A stretch of 64,000 nucleotides of DNA from Acidobacteriota bacterium (lineage in GTDB: Bacteria; Acidobacteriota; UBA6911; RPQK01; JAJDTT01). The position numbers and the translations under genes are program-made. Below are positions 25,013 through 37,824 of this stretch, piece by piece (position 1 is the first letter of the stretch; the number at the start of each line of letters is the position of its first letter). The notes beneath the pieces are model-generated. The model did not search any database. It was not told the DNA's origin and saw only the letters and a program-made list of their open reading frames with translations. The stretch covers positions 3,936,001 through 4,000,000 of the forward strand of contig CBDCJH010000002.1 in assembly GCA_965217775.1 (NCBI GenBank), given 5' to 3'.

Positions 25013-28000
25013 TTAGGCTGATCGACCACTGAGCACATCCTCGATCAACTGACTGATGGCGGATGAGTCGATGCCACCACGCCGATCATCCTGGGTGACG
25101 ATCAACGTACCATTGGCACCGCCACCTTCTTCGTGCGGCAAGATGCAGTTGTCGCGGTACCACTGTTCCTTCTCTTGCCAGCGTCGCTTGTAGTAGTCGT
25201 CCCGCAGCATGCCCAGATGCTCCCAAATATATTTCTCGCCGGTGTCGTCGTCCTCGATTGTAAAATCAGGAAACTTGTCGTAGAGAACGTCGTCGATTTC
25301 CAGCTGCTGTTCATACTCGTAGTCGATGTTCCTAACATGCAACAAGTTCGCGATGATGACCTCAGATTTGGATCGGACGAGCTCGCCGCGGGTTGTGTTG
25401 TGTATGAGTTGCTCTTCCAAAAACCTCCCCCTGAATTCGATCGGATTTGGTGGGCGGAATAGGTTGGTCAATCGACATACAACGGCCGAGTAGCGATCGG
25501 AACTGAACCGGTGCAGATCGGTGGCTGAACCCTGAAGCAGTACGACAACCTTATCCTTCTGTCGCGTGAGCGCTGTGTAGAGCAATTCGCGAGTGACCAT
25601 GAGCGGCGAACGGGGCAGGACCAGCAATACCTTGGCGAACTCGCTGCCTTGTGCCTTGTGGACGGTCAACGCGTAAGCCAGTTCAAGACCGGCTTCGCCC
25701 TCCTCCTTAAAGTCGCTATTGTAGAAGGTGAAGGACGTTCCACGCTGGGTGGAGAACTCGATCTCGAGGTTCTGGGGCCACCAGTTCCGGCTCCTCGTCC
25801 TCCGATGGCCGACGACGATCCCGATCTCACCGTTCGCCAGATAACCGCGCCCATCCGGCCTTGGATACATCCGCTGCTTGGGTACTGACCAGTTGCGATT
25901 GTTGATCACTTTGTCGCCATAAATGATCTGCTGGTCACCCTTGGGTTTCGGAATGTAACGCATTTTGCCCGGATTATGGGCAAGGTCGATTTGGCGACCC
26001 TTGTAGCGAGTGTGGATGAACCGGTTGAGCGTATCGACACCCCACGGCTTCTGGCGGACAGGGCTCAGAATCTGCCATGCTTCGGCCGCGATGCCAGCGC
26101 CTTCCCTGTCGCCGCGCTTGGGGTGGAACCAAATGGATCTGTTCCACTCGCTGCCGCCAAGTCTGATGCCGAGGGCCTGCCATTCCTCTATGTCCGGATC
26201 GAAATCCAGCGTCCGGCGCAAAACCTCGGGCAGCACCGTCTGCAGCTCGTCGGGCGTCTCCCACGAGACAAACTCGACGGTTCGGCTCGTACGCATGCCG
26301 GAAAGAATCTCAAAGACTTGGTCGTCGCCGGCGCTCGTCTCGCCGCGTCCGAACCATGAAGCGAGCAGAAGGTCGTCACCTTGGCCTGCTCCCGGACGGC
26401 GAGGAATCATCAGTTCGGCGAAACCGGAAGCGACGTGGGGTTGATCGATCGCGAAGTCTTCAGGTTTCAGATGGGCGACAATGTCCACGAATGGCCGTCC
26501 TGCGCCGATCGGCGGCAGCTGTCGGTAGTCGCCGACGAAGATCAACCGGACGACCCCGCTCAAGGATTCGATCAGAGCTGCCATCATCTCCTCGGTGAGC
26601 ATCGAGCACTCATCGACGATCACCGTCTTGGCGACCCTCTCCCCGCGTGCACCGGTCAGGAGGTACCGTTGGGTCCGGCCATCATAGCGATCCGTCAAGA
26701 TCAGGTGCTGCGCGACCGTATACGCGCGGCAGTTCTCGATACCGGCCTTCCGAGCCACGTCTTCCATCCGAACCCGAGCCTTGCCGGTCGGTGCAAGTAG
26801 AAGTACCCCACCTCTGTTGATCTCCGGTTGGGCGCATAGGATGGACAGCAAGGTGGTCTTGCCCGTTCCCGCCCGTCCGGCCAAGACACTAAAACGAGAC
26901 GACGCAAGTTCCTCAATGGCTGCGGTTTTCTCCGTGCGCGCCTTCTCCTCTCGGTCCCGTTCTTCTGTTTCATCCGGCATTTCCTTAAGGAACGCATCGA
27001 TTACCGCCCGCCAGTTCACGTCCATGCAGTGGCGCCTTGCGGCAACCCGTTTTTCGACGGTGGAGCGTATTAGGTCTCCAGCTTCGCCAAGACGGACAAG
27101 CTGATATGCCAGTTGGTTATTGGCCATCTTGACGATGCGAATCTCGCCCTGGAATACCTCATCTTCGGCGACACCAAGCAGGTCGGTCGTGATCTGGGCC
27201 GTCTGCTCCTCCCCATCTTCCTCCCCTCGACGCAGGGCGCGAACGATGTCATCTCGGGAGCGAAGCGTGTCACCGTTTCGCGCAGCAGCTTCAAGGCTGC
27301 GAATGGTCAGGGCGCGAAGCCGTCGGACATCGACAGCCGTCTTGACGAGCGACGGCTCCGGGATGGGGAATTCTTTCCGGAGCTTCGCGTTCGGAAACAT
27401 GCCGCGATCGACAACTCCGATCGAGACGGGCCGATCGGATAGGCGTGTAGCCTCGTACACGAGGTATGGGTTCTTCGTGATCTCAGCGTCCGAAGGGTCA
27501 ATTCCGTGATCTCTACGCTCGACTGGTGAGACCAACAGATCGGCCTGGTCCTGCGTTATATCCATGCGACTGAGCAGCGCGAGAAAAGCCCGACGACCAT
27601 TGTCCATTCGCTGCCAGGCCTTGGCTATCGAGTCGTCGATGTGTCGAGCCAGCTCGGGCGGCAGAAATTCATCAGGATTGTCGAGGGTCCTGAACCAAGC
27701 TGGCCAAGGGTCCGTTTCGTCGCCGATCCTATCGAGAAGTGACTGAGCGATGAAGTTGCCCATCCTGACACTCATCGCGGAGAGCACCACACCGAGTCCC
27801 GGAAACGGACCGCGTTTAATCCAAAGGCGACTCAACTCCCTGTCTATCCATCTTTCGAAGCGATCAGGCACGTACCCGAACAACTCGGAGCAGCGATGCA
27901 GCGCACTACGCATCGCCATCAGGGAACTTATCGCGGCGTCGTTTCCGACGTGCTCGGTGACGTAAGAGAACTCGACAAACCGATCTTGTGGCGCAAACGC

Positions 28001-28831
28001 TACAGCGTTCGCAGGATCGAAGGCGCGACCGTCATCACTTTTTGCCAGCGCCTCATGGTACGGAAGCAGGAAACCATCCTCGAATTCCGGCCGGATCGAG
28101 TGGACGACCATGCGCTCCCACAGAAGGCTCCGAAGCTTCTCGCCCGGCGACCGGTTGTACCGGTACTCCGTAAGGTCGCCAATCTTCTTCACGCGCCCGA
28201 CGCCGATGAGCACCCGCCGGCCCGTATCATCGACGAGTGGAACTTGCTTTGCGTAGAAAAATACAAGGGACTTTTCGGGTCGAACATGATTCCAGAAGCA
28301 GTCGAGCAAGGCGCGGTGGTTGCGATGATCCTGCAGAAAATTCGACTTGAAGGGTAACCGCGGCTCCAGCTCTGCGTTCACTTCGTCCAACGGGAACTTG
28401 TCCATGAGGCCAGCAACGCTGTTTTTCGGATCTCCGAAAACTTCGTTTCGCATCATCCACCGAAACGGGATTGCTGCCGCTCCATACGGCGGATGACGCA
28501 ATGGAGTCGGGCGAAAATGGCCGTGTGTCTGAGGACTGGTCTTGACGTAGGGATGCTGTTTCCGGTGGACGAAGTCGAAGTCAGCCATGAAGCTGGCCCG
28601 CTCGTTGACGCACGGCGGCAGCGGAATGTCCCGAGCTATCAGGTCTTCGAATGACCGGCCCTTTACGGTTTCCTCGACGCGGTCGTCCTTGGAATCCGAG
28701 ATGTTCTTCAACTTGAGACACGCTGTGTTGAACTTCGGTTCCTTGCATACGGAGCCGTTCCAGCCGTTGTCGTGCCACGGGACCCGGATGGACACATGGT
28801 GTAACGGATATGAAAAATTAATCATGTTCAA
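25013..28831 (-). CDS. RecD-like SF1B helicase with C-terminal PD-(D/E)XK-type nuclease domain
   Basis: GRAGTGKT, IVDECSM, GDYRQLPPIGAG, AYALTVHKAQGSEF and LYTALTR motifs; C-terminal VRSKSE..YEYE..PDFTI..WEHLG. Confidence 0.88.
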   Translation of the reverse strand: MNMINFSYPLHHVSIRVPWHDNGWNGSVCKEPKFNTACLKLKNISDSKDDRVEETVKGRSFEDLIARDIPLPPCVNERASFMADFDFVHRKQHPYVKTSPQTHGHFRPTPLRHPPYGAAAIPFRWMMRNEVFGDPKNSVAGLMDKFPLDEVNAELEPRLPFKSNFLQDHRNHRALLDCFWNHVRPEKSLVFFYAKQVPLVDDTGRRVLIGVGRVKKIGDLTEYRYNRSPGEKLRSLLWERMVVHSIRPEFEDGFLLPYHEALAKSDDGRAFDPANAVAFAPQDRFVEFSYVTEHVGNDAAISSLMAMRSALHRCSELFGYVPDRFERWIDRELSRLWIKRGPFPGLGVVLSAMSVRMGNFIAQSLLDRIGDETDPWPAWFRTLDNPDEFLPPELARHIDDSIAKAWQRMDNGRRAFLALLSRMDITQDQADLLVSPVERRDHGIDPSDAEITKNPYLVYEATRLSDRPVSIGVVDRGMFPNAKLRKEFPIPEPSLVKTAVDVRRLRALTIRSLEAAARNGDTLRSRDDIVRALRRGEEDGEEQTAQITTDLLGVAEDEVFQGEIRIVKMANNQLAYQLVRLGEAGDLIRSTVEKRVAARRHCMDVNWRAVIDAFLKEMPDETEERDREEKARTEKTAAIEELASSRFSVLAGRAGTGKTTLLSILCAQPEINRGGVLLLAPTGKARVRMEDVARKAGIENCRAYTVAQHLILTDRYDGRTQRYLLTGARGERVAKTVIVDECSMLTEEMMAALIESLSGVVRLIFVGDYRQLPPIGAGRPFVDIVAHLKPEDFAIDQPHVASGFAELMIPRRPGAGQGDDLLLASWFGRGETSAGDDQVFEILSGMRTSRTVEFVSWETPDELQTVLPEVLRRTLDFDPDIEEWQALGIRLGGSEWNRSIWFHPKRGDREGAGIAAEAWQILSPVRQKPWGVDTLNRFIHTRYKGRQIDLAHNPGKMRYIPKPKGDQQIIYGDKVINNRNWSVPKQRMYPRPDGRGYLANGEIGIVVGHRRTRSRNWWPQNLEIEFSTQRGTSFTFYNSDFKEEGEAGLELAYALTVHKAQGSEFAKVLLVLPRSPLMVTRELLYTALTRQKDKVVVLLQGSATDLHRFSSDRYSAVVCRLTNLFRPPNPIEFRGRFLEEQLIHNTTRGELVRSKSEVIIANLLHVRNIDYEYEQQLEIDDVLYDKFPDFTIEDDDTGEKYIWEHLGMLRDDYYKRRWQEKEQWYRDNCILPHEEGGGANGTLIVTQDDRRGGIDSSAISQLIEDVLSGRSA

Positions 28832-29041
28832 GTTGTCTGACTCCGAATTGTTACTGAAGGCATTGCGGCCGACTACTCAAGGCCAGCGTCATGGCATAAA
28901 CGAGTGACGGGGCGTATTCGCCGGCGTCCGCCCAAGCCGCTCATCTATCGCATCGCATCCTCCGGCGAGATGCACGACGGATGTCTGGTCACTCAGCATC
29001 GGCTACACCTTGTATACCAATTGTCGCTCCGCCCGGAGGGA

Positions 29042-32000
29042 CTATGGCGCCAACACCTCGATCAGCTCCGCGATCACCTGGAATTGCTCTTCTTCCGCAC
29101 CGGTAAGGACGATCGGGTCGAAGTCCGGATTCACGGGCTGGAGGATGATCGTCTCGTGGCGCCAGGAGTCATGGGACGCCACCTTCTCGCTACGGTACCG
29201 CTTCACGGTGTAGCGCTGTCCCGTCTCGGGGTCGGTGGCGTCGCGGAGTTGGACGAGGACGGTCTTCCCCTGCCGGCTGCCCTCCACCGGGGCGCGAAAG
29301 AGACAGTACGAACCATCCGGGATGGCCGGCTCCATGGACCTGCCGATGACCTGCGCGGCGAACATGCCGGGGCGCAATCGGCGGCCCGAGTCGACGGCCA
29401 CCCAATCGAATGAGTCGTCCTCGACGTGCTGTGAATCGCCGAAGGCGCCCGCCGCAGCCTTGAGTGGAAAGAGCGGCACACAGTTGACATATCGATCTTC
29501 CGGGAGACCCTCCATAATCCTCAGATGCGGTGGAAGGGGTCGTCCGGACTCCCGGCCTTCGCCCTCGCCCGAGCCGGTCCGTAGCCGACGATAGGCTTCG
29601 GAAGCCATCCAGGCACTAACGATTCGCTGGAAGGACACGTCGTTCATGTACCGAATGAAGATCTCCTCATTCTGATCCATCCGTTCGACGAACAGCCCCT
29701 CGATCTGGTTCTTGAACACCATCTCGAACTTGTCGACCGAATTCACCGAGGCAGCGTGGCGCAGGCTGTCGTCCGTCAGAGCCGCCTCGACGATCTGGTC
29801 GAAGAAGAGCTGATCGGCCTGGTTGAAATCGGTTCCAAAGCGCTCGTTGATGACGTCGATGAGTTGGGAGAGGGGTACTTCATCCTCCCTCGCCAAACCG
29901 GATCCCACCTCCGTCGGGCCGTCCAAGGACCGCGCCTTGCCTTCCTGAAGCGAGATCGAGCCCTCGCTGATCTTCTGCAGCCGATAGTACTCGAGCCGCA
30001 CCTCGTCATCGAACTGGTAGGCCGGCCCGCTCCGGCGACGCGGCAGCTTCGCCGCCAGATGGCGCAGGAAGACGTACAGACGCTCGAGATCCGAGTCCTG
30101 GTAGGGGATCACTTGGCTCAGGAACCCGTAGAGGTTGCGGAACGCCCGGACCTTGCCGCGCCAGAGTTCCGCCTCGTCCTCCTGGTCTCTCTGCAGCACC
30201 GTGAAGCGGGACACGGCCGGATCGAGCGCCGCATTCATGATTCGGTGGTCCCGAACGCTCTGGCGCTGCCTGGGCTTGAAGTACACCGAGCAGAATCCCT
30301 CCACCTCTTCATCGAGGTAGATTCCGGAGGCGTCCAGGTCTCCCTTGACCAGATACATCCGGGCGGGGTCCACCTCGTCGCCCATTTCCGCACCCTCGTA
30401 GTACGTCTTGAAGGCCTCGTGTATTTCGTCACGGTCGTTGACGAAATCGAGGACGAAGGTGTCCTCCTTCAGGGGGTGGGTGCGGTTCAGGCGCGAGAGT
30501 GTCTGGACGGCCCGGATCCCGGCAAGCCGTTTGTCCACGTACATGGTGTGCAACAGCGGCTGATCGAAGCCGGTCTGGTACTTTTCGGCTACCAGGAGAA
30601 CTTGGTATTCCTGCGTACCGAACTTCTCGGGCAGCTCCGTCTGGCGAATCCCGAGGTTCATCTTCACCTCGGTGTATTCGACACCCGAAAGCTTGTCGTC
30701 CTGAACTGCGCCGGAGAACGCGACCAGCGTCTTGATCGAGTATCCCTTCTCCTTGATGTAGCGATCGAAGCTCTGCTTGTAACGCACCGCCTCGAGCCGC
30801 GACCCGGTGACGACCATCGCCTTGGCGCGGCCCCCGATCTTGTGCCGGGTCACGGCCTGGAAGTGTTCGACCATGACCTCGGTCTTCTGTGCGATGTTGT
30901 GCGGGTGCAGACGCATGAAGCGGGCCAGCGCACGAGCCGCCCGCTTGCGCTCGACGTTGGGATCGTCCTCACAGGCCTTGAGGAGTTGATAATAGGTGAC
31001 GTAGGTCGTGTAGTGCTTCAGCACATCGAGGATGAACCCCTCCTCGATGGCTTGACGCATGGTGTAGCGGTGCATCGGCTCGCCGTTGCGGCCGAAGACC
31101 GCGAGGGTCTTGTGCTTGGGCGTCGCCGTGAAGGCGAAGAAACTCAAGTTCGCCTGCCGGCCGCGCTTCGCCATGCTGCGAAACAGTTTTTCCAGATCTT
31201 CGCGCCCTTCCTCCTTGGCGCGCACGCGAGCTTCCTCCCGAAGGCGTTCGCCCCCAAGGACTTCCTTGAGGTCCGTCGCTGTCTCTCCCCCCTGGGAGCT
31301 GTGGGCCTCGTCCACGATGACGGCACAGCGTCGTGTCGGAAGGACGCCGGTTCCCTGCTCGCCCCGCTCCTCGGCCATCTTCAAGAGTTGCCGTGACACG
31401 AACGGGAACTTCTGCAGGGTGGTGATGATGATCGGCACGGCCGTCTCCAAGGCATTGGCGAGCTGCTTGGAGCTCTTCTCTATCTTCTGCAACACCCCGA
31501 ACTTGTGTTCGAATTGGTAGATGGTGTCTTGGAGCTGCTGGTCGAGCACGACGCGGTCGGTCACGACGATCACGCTGTCGAAGATCCGCTCATTCGCGTC
31601 GTCGTGCAGCGAGGCCAGCCGGTGGGCAAGCCAGCCGATGCTGTTGCTCTTGCCGCTGCCCGCCGAGTGCTCGATCAAGTAGTTCTGTCCGACGCCGTCT
31701 GCCCGGGCCCCTTCCACCAGCGTGCGCACGGCGTCGAGTTGGTGGAAGCGCGGAAAGATCATCGTCTCGACCTTGACCTTGCGGCCACGATCATCGCGCT
31801 TCTCATTGATCTGAAGGTGGATGAAGCGCGCGAGCAGGTCGAGTAGGCTGTGGCGTTCGAGCACCTCCTCCCAGAGATAGGCTGTGCGGTAGCCGCGGCA
31901 AGCGGGATCGACCGGGTTGCCCGCCGCGCCGTCGCAGCCTTGGTCGAAGGGCAGGAAGTGGGTCGCGTTGCCGCCGAGTCGGGTGGTCATGCGCACGCAC

Positions 32001-32587
32001 TCCGTGTCGACGGCGAAGTGAACGAGGGTCCGCCGCTTGAACTCGAAGATCGGATCCCGGGGGTCGCGGTCGCGCCGGTACTGGCGCATGGCGTCTTCCA
32101 CCGTCTGTCCGGTCAGTGGATTCTTGAGCTCCACGGTAGCGACGGGGATGCCGTTCAGGCTCAGCGTGACGTCGAGTGATTTTTCCGATCGGGTTGAGTA
32201 GTGGAGCTGGCGCGTGACACCAAGCCGGTTGGCGGCGTAACAAGCCTCAAGCTGGGGATTCAGCCCATGGGCCGCCTTGAAGAAAGCCACGCGCAACGTG
32301 CGCCCGTAGCACTTGAAGCCGTGACGTAGCGTCGCGAGCGATCCATTCGCATCCATCCACTTGCACAGGTCGCCGAGCACTTGCACGGCGGTCCGGTCGC
32401 CAAGGAGCGCCTCGAGCCTTGACCATTCCTTGGGCTGGGTCTCCTGGATGAAGGCCAGGACGATCTCCGGAAAGATCGCGCGCTCGCGGTCGAAACCCTC
32501 CGACAGGACGGGCTTGTAGCCGTGATTGAGCAGGTGTGTCTCGATGACGGCCTCGAAGGCGGCTTCGGTGTGACTCTTGTGGCTCAT
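29042..32587 (-). CDS. hsdR: Type I restriction endonuclease subunit R with C-terminal S24 (LexA-like) peptidase domain
   Basis: [38 protein letters not shown] and TGFDQP motifs; tail with AAAG, GRSMEP, TVKRY and LQPVNP. Confidence 0.93.
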
Positions 32588-33234
32588 GCCGAGAGTTCCT
32601 CGAGTCGTTCATCAAGCCACCAGACGGCAACCTGACAATACGGGTTGAGCGCACCCGTCCCGGCGACGATTCGATCTCGCTCTCTCTTGAAGCGCGAGCG
32701 AGGAACCCGGCCTCGGAGTCGTGCTCTCTCAAGGCGCCACCACTTGAGGATGGCATCGAGCAATCGTTTCCGGTTGTTCTTCAAGAACGGGAGATTGAGG
32801 TTCAAAACCTGGTCGATCTGTGAATCAAACACCTGCTCGCCGGAGCGGATGCGGCCGTCCGCCTCATAGCGAACTCGCGTGTCGATGTGATGGTCTGGAT
32901 CCGCCGGGTTCCACAGAAGATCCTGGTCACCCTTGCGCGTGTCGCAGTGCTGGAGGTGCGGCGGATGTCCTTTCCCGCCGCAGCACGCGCCGAGGAGGTT
33001 CCGGTACGCAAGCTGTTCGCCGGCGTAATGGCGCTGACAATGCCAATGCTCGATCTTCATGGCCGTGCGATCATCGCCTATCCGGCCCATGCAGTAGCAA
33101 CAGATCTCGCGTTGCTCGGTTACGAGCGCATGGCGGAGGACATCCTTGTCAGCGTAGTTGTCGTAGTCGCAGTACGGCGTCTTGCGATGCACCGTCAGGC
33201 TCCGCGGCTCGGAGCCTTTGACGATTGTCCTCAA
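32584..33234 (-). CDS. ptuB: HNH endonuclease (TIGR02646/PtuB-like)
   Basis: [30 protein letters not shown] and LNLN..LKNNR motifs. Confidence 0.82.
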
Positions 33235-34547
33235 TCCTTGCCCTCCACGAAGTCAAGCAAGGTCCGCAGGTACGTCACCTCAGGGTCACTCTCCCCGAGG
33301 TGATCGACGAGCTTTTCCAGCAGATCACGGCTGCAATCGAACTGCCGAGCACTGATGGCCTGCGAAATGTCCTTAATCAGGTGCTGTACTTCCTTCGCGC
33401 GCGGGTCCGCGTCCATAATCTCCTCCAACACCCGGCTCGAATCGACGCCGAAGGAGTGCGGTGGCGGGTAGACTTGGCCAGGCGAGATGATCTGGATCCG
33501 CTCGTGCGGCACTTCCCCGATGACCTGGGGCGAGTGGGTCGTCGCGATGAACTGGCAACGAGGAAAAGCGGCCGTCAGATTGTGGACGATCTGCCTCTGC
33601 CACTTGGGATGTAGATGCAGGTCAATCTCATCGATTAAGACCGTTGCCCTGCCTTCTGCGAGTGGATCAGTGAGGTGGGGATTCGCTTGCGAAAGTCTTC
33701 GCGCAAGGTCAAGGGCGATAGACAAGATGCCACGTTCCCCATCTGACAATTGTCGTACATCAAGCGTGTCCCCAGCCTTTGTCACGAACAGCGCTGGGTT
33801 GGGCCCCTCACCTGTGCGAAGATTGCTGCATTCGGGGAGGAATCGAGCAGCCGCGGTTTCCAACGCCGCAATATGCCCCTCCGAAGCATCGTTTTCCGAT
33901 GAGAGCGCCACTTGAGCCCGCATCCAGTCGACGAACTGATCAATCTTCCATGAACGCGCAACAAGGGCGTCCGCGTAAGCTGCGGCCCGTCCTCCAGCAG
34001 CCCTTCCCTTGGAACGCCCGACAGCCAAGACTGATCGGTTCGTCGAATAGAAGACCGAAAGCGCAGGTACTGAGAGCGCTTCTGCTGCCCGGCGAAGCTC
34101 TACCTTCGAGGGTATGTACAAGTCTGAGTCAGTTAGGCCCTGCGAGCGTTCCAACTCGCGGAGAAGATTGCGAGCTCGAGCTCGCAGCCGTTCCGTTTCG
34201 AGAATTTCTCTGCGAAGTCGTTCAAGATTCTCCAGAGGCTCCGCCGCAATCTTCTGTCTCCACACGAGCCGGGTGAAGCGAAACTCTTGCTCGCCGACAC
34301 CGAAGTGCATCGTAGAATCCAAGAAGGGAAAGCCAACTCGGATGTCACCAATTTCGAACGACATTGCCTTTGCACGAGACGGGGTAATCGCGGGCAACAC
34401 CCGTGACAGACAAACTCGCAGAGCGTCGAGCACGCTCGTCTTGCCGACGCCGTTCACCCCGACGATTAGATTCACGCCCGGCCGAAACCGAAACTCTGCC
34501 GTCTTGATCGCGCGCATGTGAGCAAGCATGAGGCGGGTAACGATCAT
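33231..34547 (-). CDS. ptuA: ABC-type AAA ATPase (PtuA-like)
   Basis: GVNGVGKT, LSDGE, VLIDEIDLHLHPKWQR and TTHSP motifs; ATG at 34547 overlaps the hsdS stop. Confidence 0.85.
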   Translation of the reverse strand: MIVTRLMLAHMRAIKTAEFRFRPGVNLIVGVNGVGKTSVLDALRVCLSRVLPAITPSRAKAMSFEIGDIRVGFPFLDSTMHFGVGEQEFRFTRLVWRQKIAAEPLENLERLRREILETERLRARARNLLRELERSQGLTDSDLYIPSKVELRRAAEALSVPALSVFYSTNRSVLAVGRSKGRAAGGRAAAYADALVARSWKIDQFVDWMRAQVALSSENDASEGHIAALETAAARFLPECSNLRTGEGPNPALFVTKAGDTLDVRQLSDGERGILSIALDLARRLSQANPHLTDPLAEGRATVLIDEIDLHLHPKWQRQIVHNLTAAFPRCQFIATTHSPQVIGEVPHERIQIISPGQVYPPPHSFGVDSSRVLEEIMDADPRAKEVQHLIKDISQAISARQFDCSRDLLEKLVDHLGESDPEVTYLRTLLDFVEGKD

Positions 34548-35830
34548 TCGGCCGTCTCCACATCGATCTGGCCAGCAATGGCCGAAGCAATAAGCGCACC
34601 GCGACGTTCCTTGAGAAGCTTGACAGTGCATTCGGTCTCGGAGGAAACGGCGTCAATCTTACGAATACCCTTCTGTACCGCACCCACGATAGCCAATTGC
34701 TCCGCTTGAGGAGGTCGAAGTAAAGGCATTTCCATCAAATTGGTCACAGATATGGAGGCCAGATTCGTTGATTGCTTGGACCGACTCTCGAAATAAGCCT
34801 TCGCGTGATCACTAGTTATCCATTGAGCGAGCCAATCTGAAGAGATATCTCTCGCGCGAACAGCGAACACATGGTTCTGATGCAAGCAAGGATCGATCTC
34901 TCCGGTCCAGATAGCGCCGCGCCCCAACTTGTCGGCATCACCTCCTTCATTCATCAAGACATCGCCGGCACGTAGCAAGTATGAGCCTGCTTCCTGTTCC
35001 GGAATTGCAACGGCCTTCAAATCCGAAAGGTCCAAGAAGCCATCTTGGACGTTTGCCACTCGCAGATAGGGGTACTTCATCACTGTTCGCGACCGGTACT
35101 TTTTCCCAAGGGCAAGACCTGTTTGCACTGTGCCTACGAACTTGAGACGAGTCACCTCCCAATGCGAAGGAATTTCTCCCAGCCACGGGATGCCGGAGTG
35201 ACGGCGAGAGACGTTCAGATCGATGCTTCGGGTGACAGTCCGGCTGACCAGCGACCGGCGCTTCTCGGCAAGTAGCCCGATCACTCGCTCCTTCTCCCCG
35301 ATCAACGCATCGATCCACGATGTCTCACGGTCCAGGTAGTCGGCAATAGCACGTTGTTGCGTCAGGGGGGGGACACGTACGGAGTAATCCCGTATGTAAG
35401 CCTCGGGGACCCGCTGTTGGCCCGCTGTCCCGGTCATGCGTGCTTCACCACGGAGTCGGAAACGTGGATCAACGGTCACGTAGTATAGAAATCTACCGTC
35501 AAGCTCGGTGCTCGGCCTAAGAACGTGTAACTCTGTTGTTCCAAAACCAACTCCGTTCTTCGTACCGACTATCAATGCACCCTTACCGTTCTCGAAACAC
35601 GGAGTAATCTTCGCGACCACGACATCGCCGTCAAAGAACTGCGAGTATCCGGACTTGACATCTTCGAGACGGATAGTCGTTGCCAAGTCAAGCTGTCCCT
35701 GTTCGCCGATGGCTTCCATCGGGAGAAATGAGATCTCGGAGCGGCTGCTCAGCGAGGCGCCTTTATATTGTCTCCTCAAGGTTAGGAAGCGAAGTCGCTT
35801 TCTGGGCCACTCTCCAGTGCAGGCGGTCAC
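34544..35830 (-). CDS. hsdS: Type I RM specificity subunit
   Basis: Two target-recognition domains separated by PPLTQQRAIADYLD and SGIPWLGEIPSHWEV; C-terminal PPQAEQLAIV..ERRGALIASAIAGQID; visibly lower GC. Confidence 0.93.
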   Translation of the reverse strand: MTACTGEWPRKRLRFLTLRRQYKGASLSSRSEISFLPMEAIGEQGQLDLATTIRLEDVKSGYSQFFDGDVVVAKITPCFENGKGALIVGTKNGVGFGTTELHVLRPSTELDGRFLYYVTVDPRFRLRGEARMTGTAGQQRVPEAYIRDYSVRVPPLTQQRAIADYLDRETSWIDALIGEKERVIGLLAEKRRSLVSRTVTRSIDLNVSRRHSGIPWLGEIPSHWEVTRLKFVGTVQTGLALGKKYRSRTVMKYPYLRVANVQDGFLDLSDLKAVAIPEQEAGSYLLRAGDVLMNEGGDADKLGRGAIWTGEIDPCLHQNHVFAVRARDISSDWLAQWITSDHAKAYFESRSKQSTNLASISVTNLMEMPLLRPPQAEQLAIVGAVQKGIRKIDAVSSETECTVKLLKERRGALIASAIAGQIDVETAE

Positions 35831-37824
35831 CCCATCACCTCCCGAAGCAGCCGCAGGATTCTCTCCTCCGCCTGCTTCAGATCCGCGTCGATCTCCTCCA
35901 GCGGACGAGGCGGTGTGTACTTGTAGAAGTGCCGATTGAAGTTGATCTCGTAGCCGACCTTGTCCTTGCGGCGGTCCATCCAGGCGTCGGGCACGTGTGG
36001 CCTCACCTCACACTCGAAGTACGCTTCGATGTCCTCCTTGAGCGGCACGTTCTCGAAGTCGCGCAGGGCAGCGTCGGGCTCGTAGCCCTTGTGCCGGCCA
36101 CCCTTCGCCACAGGCTCCGCCACGGGATCCTTCTGCGTGAAGACATCGCGGAACAGCTTCTGCTCGGGCTTCTTCCACTTCGACTCCTGCTCGCGCAGCA
36201 GGTCCTGGATTCGCTCCCAGAGCACGTTCCAGTCGCGTCGTAGCCCGCGCCCGATCGCCTTGTCGATGTCTTGGACATCGTCGAGCAGGTGAGGGCACGC
36301 GTCCAGGAATCGCGCCTTGTCCTCGATGGTCATCTGGTAGCGCAGGCGTAGCGGGCGCTCGACGGTAACGCGGGTGTAGCCGAAATCGGCGTTGTCGAAG
36401 ATCTTCGAGTGGTTTCCGTCCTCGAAGCGGCCGTAGAGCTTGACGATCTGGGCGATCTGCCGCGCGGTGAGATGGCGGCGTTTGTCGCCGAGGCTGCGCC
36501 TGCTCTCCTTGCTTCCCCCGGGCGTCCATACATCGCGCGCGTCGAGGAGTTGGATCTTGCCCTTCCGCCGCTTCTCTTTGCGGTTGGTGACGATCCAGAC
36601 GTAGGTGCCGATGCCGGTGTTGTAGAACATCTGCCCGGGCAGGGCGATGATCGCCTCGAGCCAATCGTTTTCGATGATCCACTGGCGGATCTTGCTCTCG
36701 CCGGACCCCGCGCGCCCGGTGAAGAGCGGGGAACCGGACAACACGATGGCCAGACGCGACCCATACTTGTGCTCGATCGGACGGACGGGCTCAAACTTGG
36801 CGATCATGTGCTGCAAAAACAGCAGCGAGCCGTCGTTCACTCGAGGTAGTCCCGCACCAAAACGGCCCATGAATCCGCGCCTTTGGTGCTCCTCCCGAAT
36901 CTCGTTCTTCTGCTTCTTCCAGTCCACGCCGAAGGGGGGATTGGTGATGAAGTAGTCGAAGGTCTTGCCCTCGAACCGATCCTCGGTGAAGCTGTCGCCG
37001 AAGCGGATGTTACCGCTGCCGCCGTTGTGGTCCACCTGTTTCATCAACATGTCCGACGCCGCGGTGGCGAAGGCGCGCTTGTTGTAGTCCTGCCCGAAGA
37101 CGAATAGGCGTGCGGCGGCGTGGTGCTGGCGCAGGTAGTTCTGGGCCTCGGCCAGCATTCCACCAGTGCCGCAGGCGGGGTCCAGGAGCGTGCGCACGGC
37201 ACCGGGTGTCGCGAGCAGCTTGTCGTCCTCGATGAAGAGGATGCTCACCATGAGCCGGATCACCTCCCGCGGGGTGAAGTGGTCCCCTGCGGTCTCGTTG
37301 GCCAGCTCGTTGAAGCGCCGAATGATGTTCTCGAAGATCAGTCCCATCTGCTCGTTCGGGACTTGCTTCGGGTGTAGGTCCATGTCGGAGAACCTCGATA
37401 CAACGAGATAGAGGATGTTTGCTTCGTGCATTTTCTCGATCTCGGGTTCGAACTCGAAGTACTCGAAGATTCGGCGCACGTTGGCCGAAAAGCCCCGGAT
37501 ATAGCTGCCCAGATGCCGGTCGATGTGGTATGGGTCACCCCTCAGCTTCTGGAAGTCGAGGTCGGAGTGATTGTGGAAGGACTGAGCGGCCGCAACGTTC
37601 AGCCGCGCGTCCAAGGCCTGACCGACAAGCCTTTGTCCCCACCTCCTTTGTTCTGCCAGCACCTTGGACTTCGTCCGCGCAAGCACGCAGTCGAAGCGCC
37701 GCAATACGGTCATGGGCAACATGACACGCTCGTACTGCGGCGGACGGTAGGGCCCGCGCAGCAGGTCCGCGATACTCCAGATCAGGTTCGCGAAGTAGTT
37801 GTGATCAGGCATTGGTCCGCTCAT
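35827..37824 (-). CDS. hsdM: Type I RM N6-adenine methyltransferase
   Basis: IWSIADLLRG, GDHFTPREV, DPACGTGGM, NPPF, MFYNTGI and GYEINF motifs. Confidence 0.95.
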   Translation of the reverse strand: MSGPMPDHNYFANLIWSIADLLRGPYRPPQYERVMLPMTVLRRFDCVLARTKSKVLAEQRRWGQRLVGQALDARLNVAAAQSFHNHSDLDFQKLRGDPYHIDRHLGSYIRGFSANVRRIFEYFEFEPEIEKMHEANILYLVVSRFSDMDLHPKQVPNEQMGLIFENIIRRFNELANETAGDHFTPREVIRLMVSILFIEDDKLLATPGAVRTLLDPACGTGGMLAEAQNYLRQHHAAARLFVFGQDYNKRAFATAASDMLMKQVDHNGGSGNIRFGDSFTEDRFEGKTFDYFITNPPFGVDWKKQKNEIREEHQRRGFMGRFGAGLPRVNDGSLLFLQHMIAKFEPVRPIEHKYGSRLAIVLSGSPLFTGRAGSGESKIRQWIIENDWLEAIIALPGQMFYNTGIGTYVWIVTNRKEKRRKGKIQLLDARDVWTPGGSKESRRSLGDKRRHLTARQIAQIVKLYGRFEDGNHSKIFDNADFGYTRVTVERPLRLRYQMTIEDKARFLDACPHLLDDVQDIDKAIGRGLRRDWNVLWERIQDLLREQESKWKKPEQKLFRDVFTQKDPVAEPVAKGGRHKGYEPDAALRDFENVPLKEDIEAYFECEVRPHVPDAWMDRRKDKVGYEINFNRHFYKYTPPRPLEEIDADLKQAEERILRLLREVMG

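Follow-up and report, generated by a model that had tools for sequence, protein, structure and literature searches.

An HsdR restriction subunit with a LexA-type S24 peptidase module fused in frame to its C-terminus is encoded in a 64,000 nt stretch of DNA (hereafter the window) from the genome of an Acidobacteriota bacterium (GenBank assembly GCA_965217775.1, contig CBDCJH010000002.1, positions 3,936,001 to 4,000,000). The open reading frame (ORF), hsdR (29042–32587, minus strand; all positions are those of the window unless stated), specifies a protein of 1181 aa with no internal stops, and is the last gene of a Type I restriction-modification (R-M) operon that also carries the Septu genes ptuA and ptuB. 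By analogy with LexA and related proteins, we propose that RecA filaments would stimulate the module to cut its own chain, and that this cut would both inactivate and destabilise HsdR, giving a hard-wired, post-translational form of restriction alleviation in which PtuAB is independent cargo. We put the probability of this reading at about 50%.

Sequence and Predicted Structure of the HsdR Tail

The body of HsdR (residues 1–1000, 29588–32587) comprises a PD-(D/E)xK nuclease, a superfamily 2 (SF2) motor and a C-terminal helical region. It is followed by a flexible linker rich in Gly, Glu and Ser (residues ~1001–1019, 29531–29587) and then by the S24 module (residues ~1020–1181, 29045–29530). 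The Pfam family Peptidase_S24 (PF00717) matches residues 1043–1175 with an E-value of 2.4e-7 and a score of 30.9 bits (cut-off 23.3). An AlphaFold2 model of residues 1000–1181, with 46 relatives as input, has a predicted local distance difference test score (pLDDT) of 88.7 and a predicted template modelling score (pTM) of 0.82, and the low-confidence part is confined to the first ~20 residues, which form the Gly/Glu linker (pLDDT 57–67). When this model was used to search with Foldseek, C-terminal domains of LexA, lambda CI or UmuD filled all top 38 matches, and VIA-align superimposed it on residues 73–198 of E. coli LexA with a Z-score of 12.2 and a root-mean-square deviation of 2.8 Å over 118 aligned residues. 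As the alignment starts at LexA residue 73–75, upstream of the cleavage site, the cleavage-site region is covered by the fold match. A phmmer search of PDB sequences with the tail returned nothing at E ≤ 0.01, and a profile of 46 relatives matched only LexA, CI and UmuD chains, weakly (E 1e-3 and up).

Profile and pairwise alignments place GRSMEP opposite the G-x-S-M motif of LexA and YTVKRY opposite T-V-K-R. The predicted nucleophile is Ser1084 (29336–29338), the predicted general base is Lys1129 (29201–29203), which also aligns with the TVKRY of the host's own LexA, and the predicted scissile bond joins Ala1046 and Gly1047 (codons at 29447–29452). The tail is a complete LexA-type S24 module, with a cleavage-site region, a Ser nucleophile and a Lys base. 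An initial annotation, made from the DNA letters and their translations, had described just such a domain at 29042–29545 (residues 1014–1181 plus the stop codon), placed after a normal HsdR C-terminus, and the description is borne out. The four strings quoted in it are all found in the protein (the linker string at 1006–1016, the cleavage-site string at 1037–1047, VIGRSMEP at 1080–1087 and YTVKRY at 1126–1131), and two of the checks it proposed, a Peptidase_S24 profile search and structure prediction, both identify the S24 domain, as given above.

The module resembles the C-domain of LexA (MEROPS S24, PF00717; PDB 1JHH, 8TRG) in its fold, in the G-x-S-M serine and T-V-K-R lysine, in the Ala-Gly site on an upstream loop, and in a strand of the form ...P-x-N-x-x-F-x-P-I-V.... 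Unlike LexA, it has a 1000-aa restriction subunit as its N-terminal partner; the N-terminal DNA-binding (winged-helix/helix-turn-helix, HTH) domain is absent, the first 1000 residues being filled by HsdR domains according to Pfam. It shares 31% identity with the LexA of the host, several of its loops are longer, and ~25 conserved residues (RIVE..PEERY.TCVPL) precede the cleavage site and are confidently modelled against the core.

Conservation was tallied over 278 aligned full-tail modules, out of 329 proteins with any tail match among 346. The Ser is kept in all 278 and the Lys in 276. At the cleavage site, P2 is Ala in 275 modules, P1 is Ala in 271 and Cys in 4 (Cys is also the P1 residue of UmuD), and P1' is Gly in 264 and Ser in 10. 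Because the catalytic and scissile residues are retained in nearly all of these modules, across very different host proteins, we consider proteolysis to be under selection. Such retention is unexpected of a scaffold, and makes it very improbable that the domain serves only for dimerisation or RecA docking, with its catalysis vestigial. A role of that kind would draw on the general ability of LexA, CI and UmuD C-domains to dimerise, and would accord with PMC3553963 and PMC7049714, which describe DNA cutting by Type I and ISP enzymes once two motors meet. Complex prediction of a tail homodimer gave a score of 0.00, which is uninformative in either direction.

The Fusion in Public Sequencing Runs and Related Proteins

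Contigs of three public sequencing runs, which may include the source sample, span the whole tail, the linker and the junction (28900–29686 or 28900–29810), matching the window exactly (0 differences, 0 gaps). A strain variant in a fourth run, which comes from a separate study, differs by substitutions alone and has no indels; within residues 1000–1181 it shows 10 changes, of which 9 are synonymous and one is conservative (A1088V). A stop between hsdR and the S24 region, which the initial annotation had suggested looking for in the reads, is not present in these continuous contigs.

The HsdR body was compared with its 120 nearest database clusters (83–97% identity). An in-frame tail is found in 101 of them (99 by motif search, plus P0003 and P0297 by eye), 2 have a disrupted tail, and 17 are tail-less. 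The tail-less proteins end 4–30 residues past an AYRRLR motif, within the stretch that corresponds to the linker, as expected of a tail that comes after the normal C-terminus. They are scattered over a FastTree tree of the 120 bodies, with 13 changes for the 17 proteins compared with 13–17 in shuffles, the tree being poorly resolved at such similarity. Since the run contigs cross the junction intact and 101 of the 120 relatives share the in-frame tail, the hsdR-S24 fusion is not an assembly artefact. A mis-assembly, or a frameshift fusing hsdR with a separate S24 gene, might be suspected from the fact that the genome is a two-contig assembly and that in Halomonas sp. PA16-9, a cultured relative, the helicase and the S24 part are read in different frames; the exact matches at the junction, the variant without indels from a separate study and the shared architecture refute it for practical purposes.

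Run contigs also break at 29781–29851, where there are dozens of contigs of 31–44 nt with a word depth of up to ~1340, compared with 8–17 in the flanks. This pile-up is probably a stretch common to many related hsdR variants in those samples. The HsdR body is 83–85% identical to more than 100 clusters, with source names that include Acidobacteria, Phycisphaerales, Gammaproteobacteria, Desulfobulbaceae, Accumulibacter and Armatimonadetes. Such conservation is unusually strong for a restriction subunit, and suggests that the whole HsdR family has spread fast by horizontal transfer.

Distribution of the Module and Its Partner Enzymes

The fusion had been taken as a one-off in the initial annotation, and in this respect the annotation must be revised, as the module belongs to a large family. 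An exhaustive phmmer search of 1.84 billion cluster representatives gave 1927 matches at E ≤ 1e-3, including 232 at E ≤ 1e-30. A word-seeded search returned 1791 matches in proteins of 649–2067 aa; among the best 120 of these, 21 have the Type ISP specificity domain PF18135 and 99 have HsdR-type domains, with ~67–93% identity over the tail. Partner domains were scanned in 85 representatives of at least 240 aa among the best 150 of the 1927 matches (65 shorter ones were dropped). The most frequent was Type_ISP_C (12/85), followed by the SLFN-g3 (DUF2075) helicase (5/85), by MZB-containing helicases, HNH_4 and XRE-type HTH (4/85 each), by HsdR and the C-region of HindI-type HsdR (3/85 each), by PLD, Schlafen AlbA_2 and MmeI-like/N6_Mtase (IIG) domains (2/85 each), and by LlaJI, McrC, AlwI, HsdS and a ResIII helicase (1/85 each), while 39 of the 85 had no partner domain that was recognised. 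The S24 module is portable and is attached to many unrelated DNA-targeting defence enzymes, including two HsdR families and giant helicases.

In contigs representing one genome per species, nearly all of them metagenome-assembled genomes, 78 module loci were found. They are named for more than 15 phyla or classes, and the module is 60–80% identical across them. The names include Acidobacteriota, Binatia, Gamma-, Alpha- and Betaproteobacteria, Planctomycetota, Actinomycetota, Myxococcota, Latescibacterota and Gemmatimonadota, as well as Chloroflexi, Nitrospirae, Spirochaetes, Verrucomicrobia, Elusimicrobia and others. Searches for the module in IMG/VR viral contigs, using a pattern-limited query, and by tblastn in 50,697 phage records gave no match, and plasmid records gave one weak match only (L091), so that there is no support for the idea that it is part of prophage-borne R-M systems. 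The L091 locus (Halomonas sp. PA16-9, NZ_CP040452.1, 4977–7447) has an ORF for a 686-aa DUF2075/SLFN-g3 helicase that overlaps, in another frame, a 159-aa S24 ORF with the motifs IAAG, GESM and TVKLY, and this split is a frameshift or sequencing error. The island in which it lies also carries PIN_8, AbiEi/AbiEii and a NACHT protein.

Frequent recent swapping of tails between HsdR and ISP proteins, which had been suspected from their ~70% identity, is ruled out by a tree of 77 tails (46 HsdR tails sampled from 147, and all 31 ISP tails) that requires 2 partner-label changes, compared with 17–29 in shuffles. As the tails cluster by partner class, the module is not freely shuffled but co-evolves with that class, and the identity seen across classes reflects constraint.

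Elsewhere in the host genome, outside the window, a 122-aa open frame (C2:730898–731176, minus strand) is 49% identical to residues 89–180 of the tail query and has the appearance of a piece of another such module. Congeneric genomes encode the module on proteins of 249, 477, 736, 923, 1019 and 2008 aa. Three planctomycete proteins (L082:1681–5373, L085:2332–6441 and L086:2575–6456) start with a HIT domain, contain a ResIII/SF2 helicase and end in an S24 module that is 43–48% identical to the query; we know of no described defence system with this architecture.

Internal Insertions and the Direction of the Switch

Five HindI-type HsdR proteins carry the whole S24 module internally (L040:5068–8703, L050:5065–8685, L057:5059–8685, L065:2300–4288 and L079:3–2597). 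The module, recognisable by AAAG, GRSMEP and YTVKRY, lies between ...GYHQFHAV... and ...GVVWHTQGSGKS, which contains the GSGKS Walker A motif, in a single open frame with no stop codons. At another locus (L064), the module is C-terminal on a member of the HindI-type HsdR family that elsewhere holds it internally. A cut in the internal forms would sever the nuclease-bearing N-terminal part from the motor just before Walker A, and the S24 core would stay on the motor. A mechanism in which cleavage merely takes off an inhibitory tail cannot hold for all forms. Moreover, a module that works on so many folds should have a mechanism that does not depend on the partner, and a chain break with a new C-terminus fits this description. 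These two features are the only ones common to all the architectures, the new terminus being [A/V/I]-A-A and, as predicted from the sequence of the window HsdR, ...PLKAAA.

The variable position of the module, including its internal placement, and its flexible tether favour an off-switch over an on-switch. An on-switch would require the S24 module to hold the enzyme inactive, either by steric block or as an inactive dimer, until RecA filaments on phage replication or recombination intermediates triggered a licensing cut, so that RecA filaments would act as an infection sensor. The conserved catalytic residues indicate that cleavage matters and are in keeping with this arrangement, the HindI-type insertion beside Walker A could block ATP binding until cut, and Schlafen proteins, DUF2075-type helicases and HNH proteins, which are not classical modification-dependent self/non-self enzymes, might need licensing. 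However, partner-specific autoinhibition is poorly suited by a long flexible linker of low pLDDT and by a chain-end position on ~15 unrelated folds, and the S24 core of the internal form would stay covalently on the motor after the cut. R-M enzymes would presumably have to attack incoming DNA before any RecA filament exists, and tail-less versions of the same HsdR are common at 83–85% identity. We regard an on-switch as distinctly unlikely.

Proposed Restriction Alleviation by Self-Cleavage

If cleavage turns HsdR off, as we favour, the S24 module would cut its own chain at Ala1046-Gly1047 upon contact with a filament of RecA on single-stranded DNA, as in LexA, CI and UmuD, at times when the chromosome is damaged or under repair and unmodified target sites appear. 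The cut would inactivate HsdR, and the enzyme would then end in ...PLKAAA-COOH, a putative ClpX signal like that of ssrA and the VAA signal of the LexA fragment, through which the nuclease could be degraded. The outcome would be the protection of self DNA during repair. A search of the host genome found that it encodes RecA, ClpX and a separate, canonical LexA of 205 aa, and the tag of its transfer-messenger RNA is ANDEFALAA, the ...LAA of which is resembled by the predicted ...KAAA end of cleaved HsdR.

Passages of PMC10584840 describe how LexA cleavage reveals latent ClpX signals and how the N-fragment of a Staphylococcus aureus phage CI repressor is bound by ClpX only once cleaved. The proposed fate of HsdR is alike in that a cut would expose a ClpX signal on the N-fragment, and differs in that clearance would concern an enzyme of 115 kDa and not a small DNA-binding domain. 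A further parallel is EcoKI, for which passages of PMC4231737 present restriction alleviation as ClpXP proteolysis of HsdR, by way of a degron that is still unidentified. Here too, the proposed outcome is that HsdR is removed by proteolysis once damage has put self DNA at risk, but the EcoKI subunit has no S24 domain and is recognised during translocation and not via a RecA-triggered self-cut; the mechanism proposed for the tailed enzymes would be autonomous and portable. Taken together, the shared chain break, the [A/V/I]-A-A end and the ClpX literature favour RecA-stimulated self-cleavage that would inactivate and destabilise the enzyme.

Self-cleavage might instead inactivate the enzyme under a trigger other than RecA, such as a phage anti-restriction factor or antirepressor, pH or another stress, or it might amount to slow constitutive turnover. 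RecA-independent LexA-like regulators are reported in PMC7101444, and the LexA of the host shares, as noted, only 31% identity with the tail. The closest conventional relatives found are XRE-family, CI-like HTH-S24 repressors (P0162, P0178, P0236 and P0258), which are 45–50% identical to the tail and have HTH_3/HTH_31 in front. Those proteins are small DNA-binding repressors, whereas the module described here sits on enzymes. Against a different trigger stands the 60–80% identity of the module across more than 15 phyla or classes, which would be easier to reconcile with a universal, highly conserved partner such as RecA than with phage proteins specific to a lineage, and we consider a different trigger unlikely.

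Several points count against restriction alleviation by RecA-stimulated self-cleavage. The P1' residue is Ser and not Gly in 10 of the 278 aligned modules. The internal insertions could represent a zymogen-like block that is relieved by cleavage, and the scattered tail-less HsdRs (17/120) show that the tail is dispensable and apparently often lost. At the Type ISP/IIG-like loci L014 and L032, the tail is on the methyltransferase-specificity protein and the SNF2/HKD helicase-nuclease is a separate upstream gene, so a simple switching-off of the nuclease is too simple a description of these loci. Self-cleavage, dependence on RecA and on ClpXP, and the direction of the switch are all points that we infer, and some S24 regulators act independently of RecA, an example being IrvR (PMC7101444).

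Gene Organization of the Island

The hsdR gene is the last of a five-gene chain, hsdM-hsdS-ptuA-ptuB-hsdR, in which all genes are on the minus strand and are joined by short overlaps. The Type I methyltransferase subunit, HsdM (35827–37824, 665 aa), is recognised by Pfam HsdM_N and N6_Mtase and by PADLOC MTase_I (851 bits). It is followed by the specificity subunit, HsdS (34544–35830, 428 aa; Pfam Methylase_S, PADLOC Specificity_I E 5e-103), the gene for which overlaps the end of hsdM by 4 nt. Inside the R-M operon lie ptuA (33231–34631), coding for the Septu ATPase (PADLOC PtuA E 5.4e-113; Pfam AAA_21), and ptuB (32584–33234), coding for the Septu HNH nuclease of 216 aa (PADLOC PtuB E 2.1e-69), which has 4-nt overlaps with both ptuA and hsdR. 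The family match of PtuA starts at residue 29, so the true start of the gene is probably near 34547. PADLOC matches both proteins of the pair, and their NCBIfam equivalog scores are below the cut-offs (233.6 for PtuA, compared with 500).

Within HsdR, the Pfam domains HSDR_N (118–204), SWI2_SNF2/ResIII (279–523, with SWI2_SNF2 at 282–523) and T1R_D3-like (658–707), covered by the families PF04313, PF18766, PF04851 and PF22679, all score above their cut-offs, so that the nuclease domain and SF2 motor are both present. PADLOC assigns the protein to REase_I (E 8e-34), and the GSGKS and DEAH motifs are legible in the translation. The score on NCBIfam TIGR00348 (hsdR) is 194.9 bits, against a curated cut-off of 284.55, and the window HsdR belongs to a divergent HsdR family. 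The operon is intact, and the HsdR body is a normal Type I restriction subunit.

It had been suggested in the initial annotation that the tail might release the neighbouring PtuAB, a link that does not survive comparison of related loci. Of 26 loci with a full-length HsdR body, all of which reach far enough upstream to reveal PtuAB, it lies between hsdS and hsdR in 7 (L012, L024, L031, L033, L039, L047 and L051), and many enzymes carry the module without a PtuAB pair in their vicinity. Co-occurrence at this level rules out PtuAB as a partner regulated by the tail, and the pair is best seen as independent cargo in the operon.

Downstream of hsdR, after 210 nt, is a gene for a PDC-S68 RecD-like SF1 helicase of 1272 aa (25013–28831, minus strand; PADLOC PDC-S68 1507 bits). 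No minus-strand terminator or promoter pattern was found in the gap between the two genes. In addition to the window, 9 of 78 related loci (L011, L014, L021, L028, L032, L038, L044, L071 and L080) have a PDC-S68 homologue no more than 6 kb downstream of the module, and the S24-tailed genes upstream of this recurrent helicase are of differing enzyme classes. For example, the order at L014 is SNF2/HKD, IIG-like methyltransferase-S24, DRT1a and PDC-S68, and at L032 it is SNF2, IIG-like-S24, GajA-GajB and PDC-S68. These gene orders give the impression of a modular island in which PDC-S68 is the constant flank and the intervening cargo varies, and PDC-S68 could be either a functional partner or merely an island anchor. 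The genes flanking the island are ordinary metabolic and envelope genes, and no transfer RNA gene was found at the island borders.

Implications for the Control of Restriction

A full-text literature search turned up no account of restriction or defence enzymes with S24 tails; the supplementary tables of comparative-genomics papers lay outside this search and may list the architecture. Term look-ups in R-M reviews and in papers on YprA helicases, bacterial Schlafens and BREX likewise returned no S24-tailed enzymes. Some automatic JGI names for tailed proteins read 'SOS-response transcriptional repressor LexA'. Known kinds of protein, an S24 autoprotease and a restriction enzyme, are joined here in a way that implies an undescribed, protein-level control of restriction.

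Only for a few Type I enzymes of E. coli is it understood how DNA-cutting defences spare their host while DNA is being repaired or recombined, and in passages of PMC4231737 the authors ask why restriction alleviation is not seen for other classes of R-M system. As a tentative extension of the HsdR case, the module may be a portable, ~160-aa 'SOS-cleavable tag' that could be joined to the end of, or placed within, nearly any DNA-targeting immune enzyme, as on Type I, ISP/IIG, IIS and IV enzymes, on PLD and HNH nucleases, and on Schlafen-type and giant YprA-like helicases, in which contact with RecA would cut the enzyme and expose a degron, shutting down DNA immunity protein by protein during repair.

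Should the direction of the switch prove to be the opposite one, RecA filaments would be an infection signal for nucleases, and the control would be new under either direction. For engineering, a module of this kind might also serve as a compact protein switch that responds to DNA damage. If the proposed direction is right, a self-contained cleavage module that senses RecA and sits on at least a dozen classes of enzyme would be a direct, testable answer to the question posed in PMC4231737. The S24 autoprotease paradigm, which covers transcription factors and UmuD, would then take in enzymes as well, and post-translational restriction alleviation would become a general phenomenon, reaching far beyond the ClpXP/EcoKI case.

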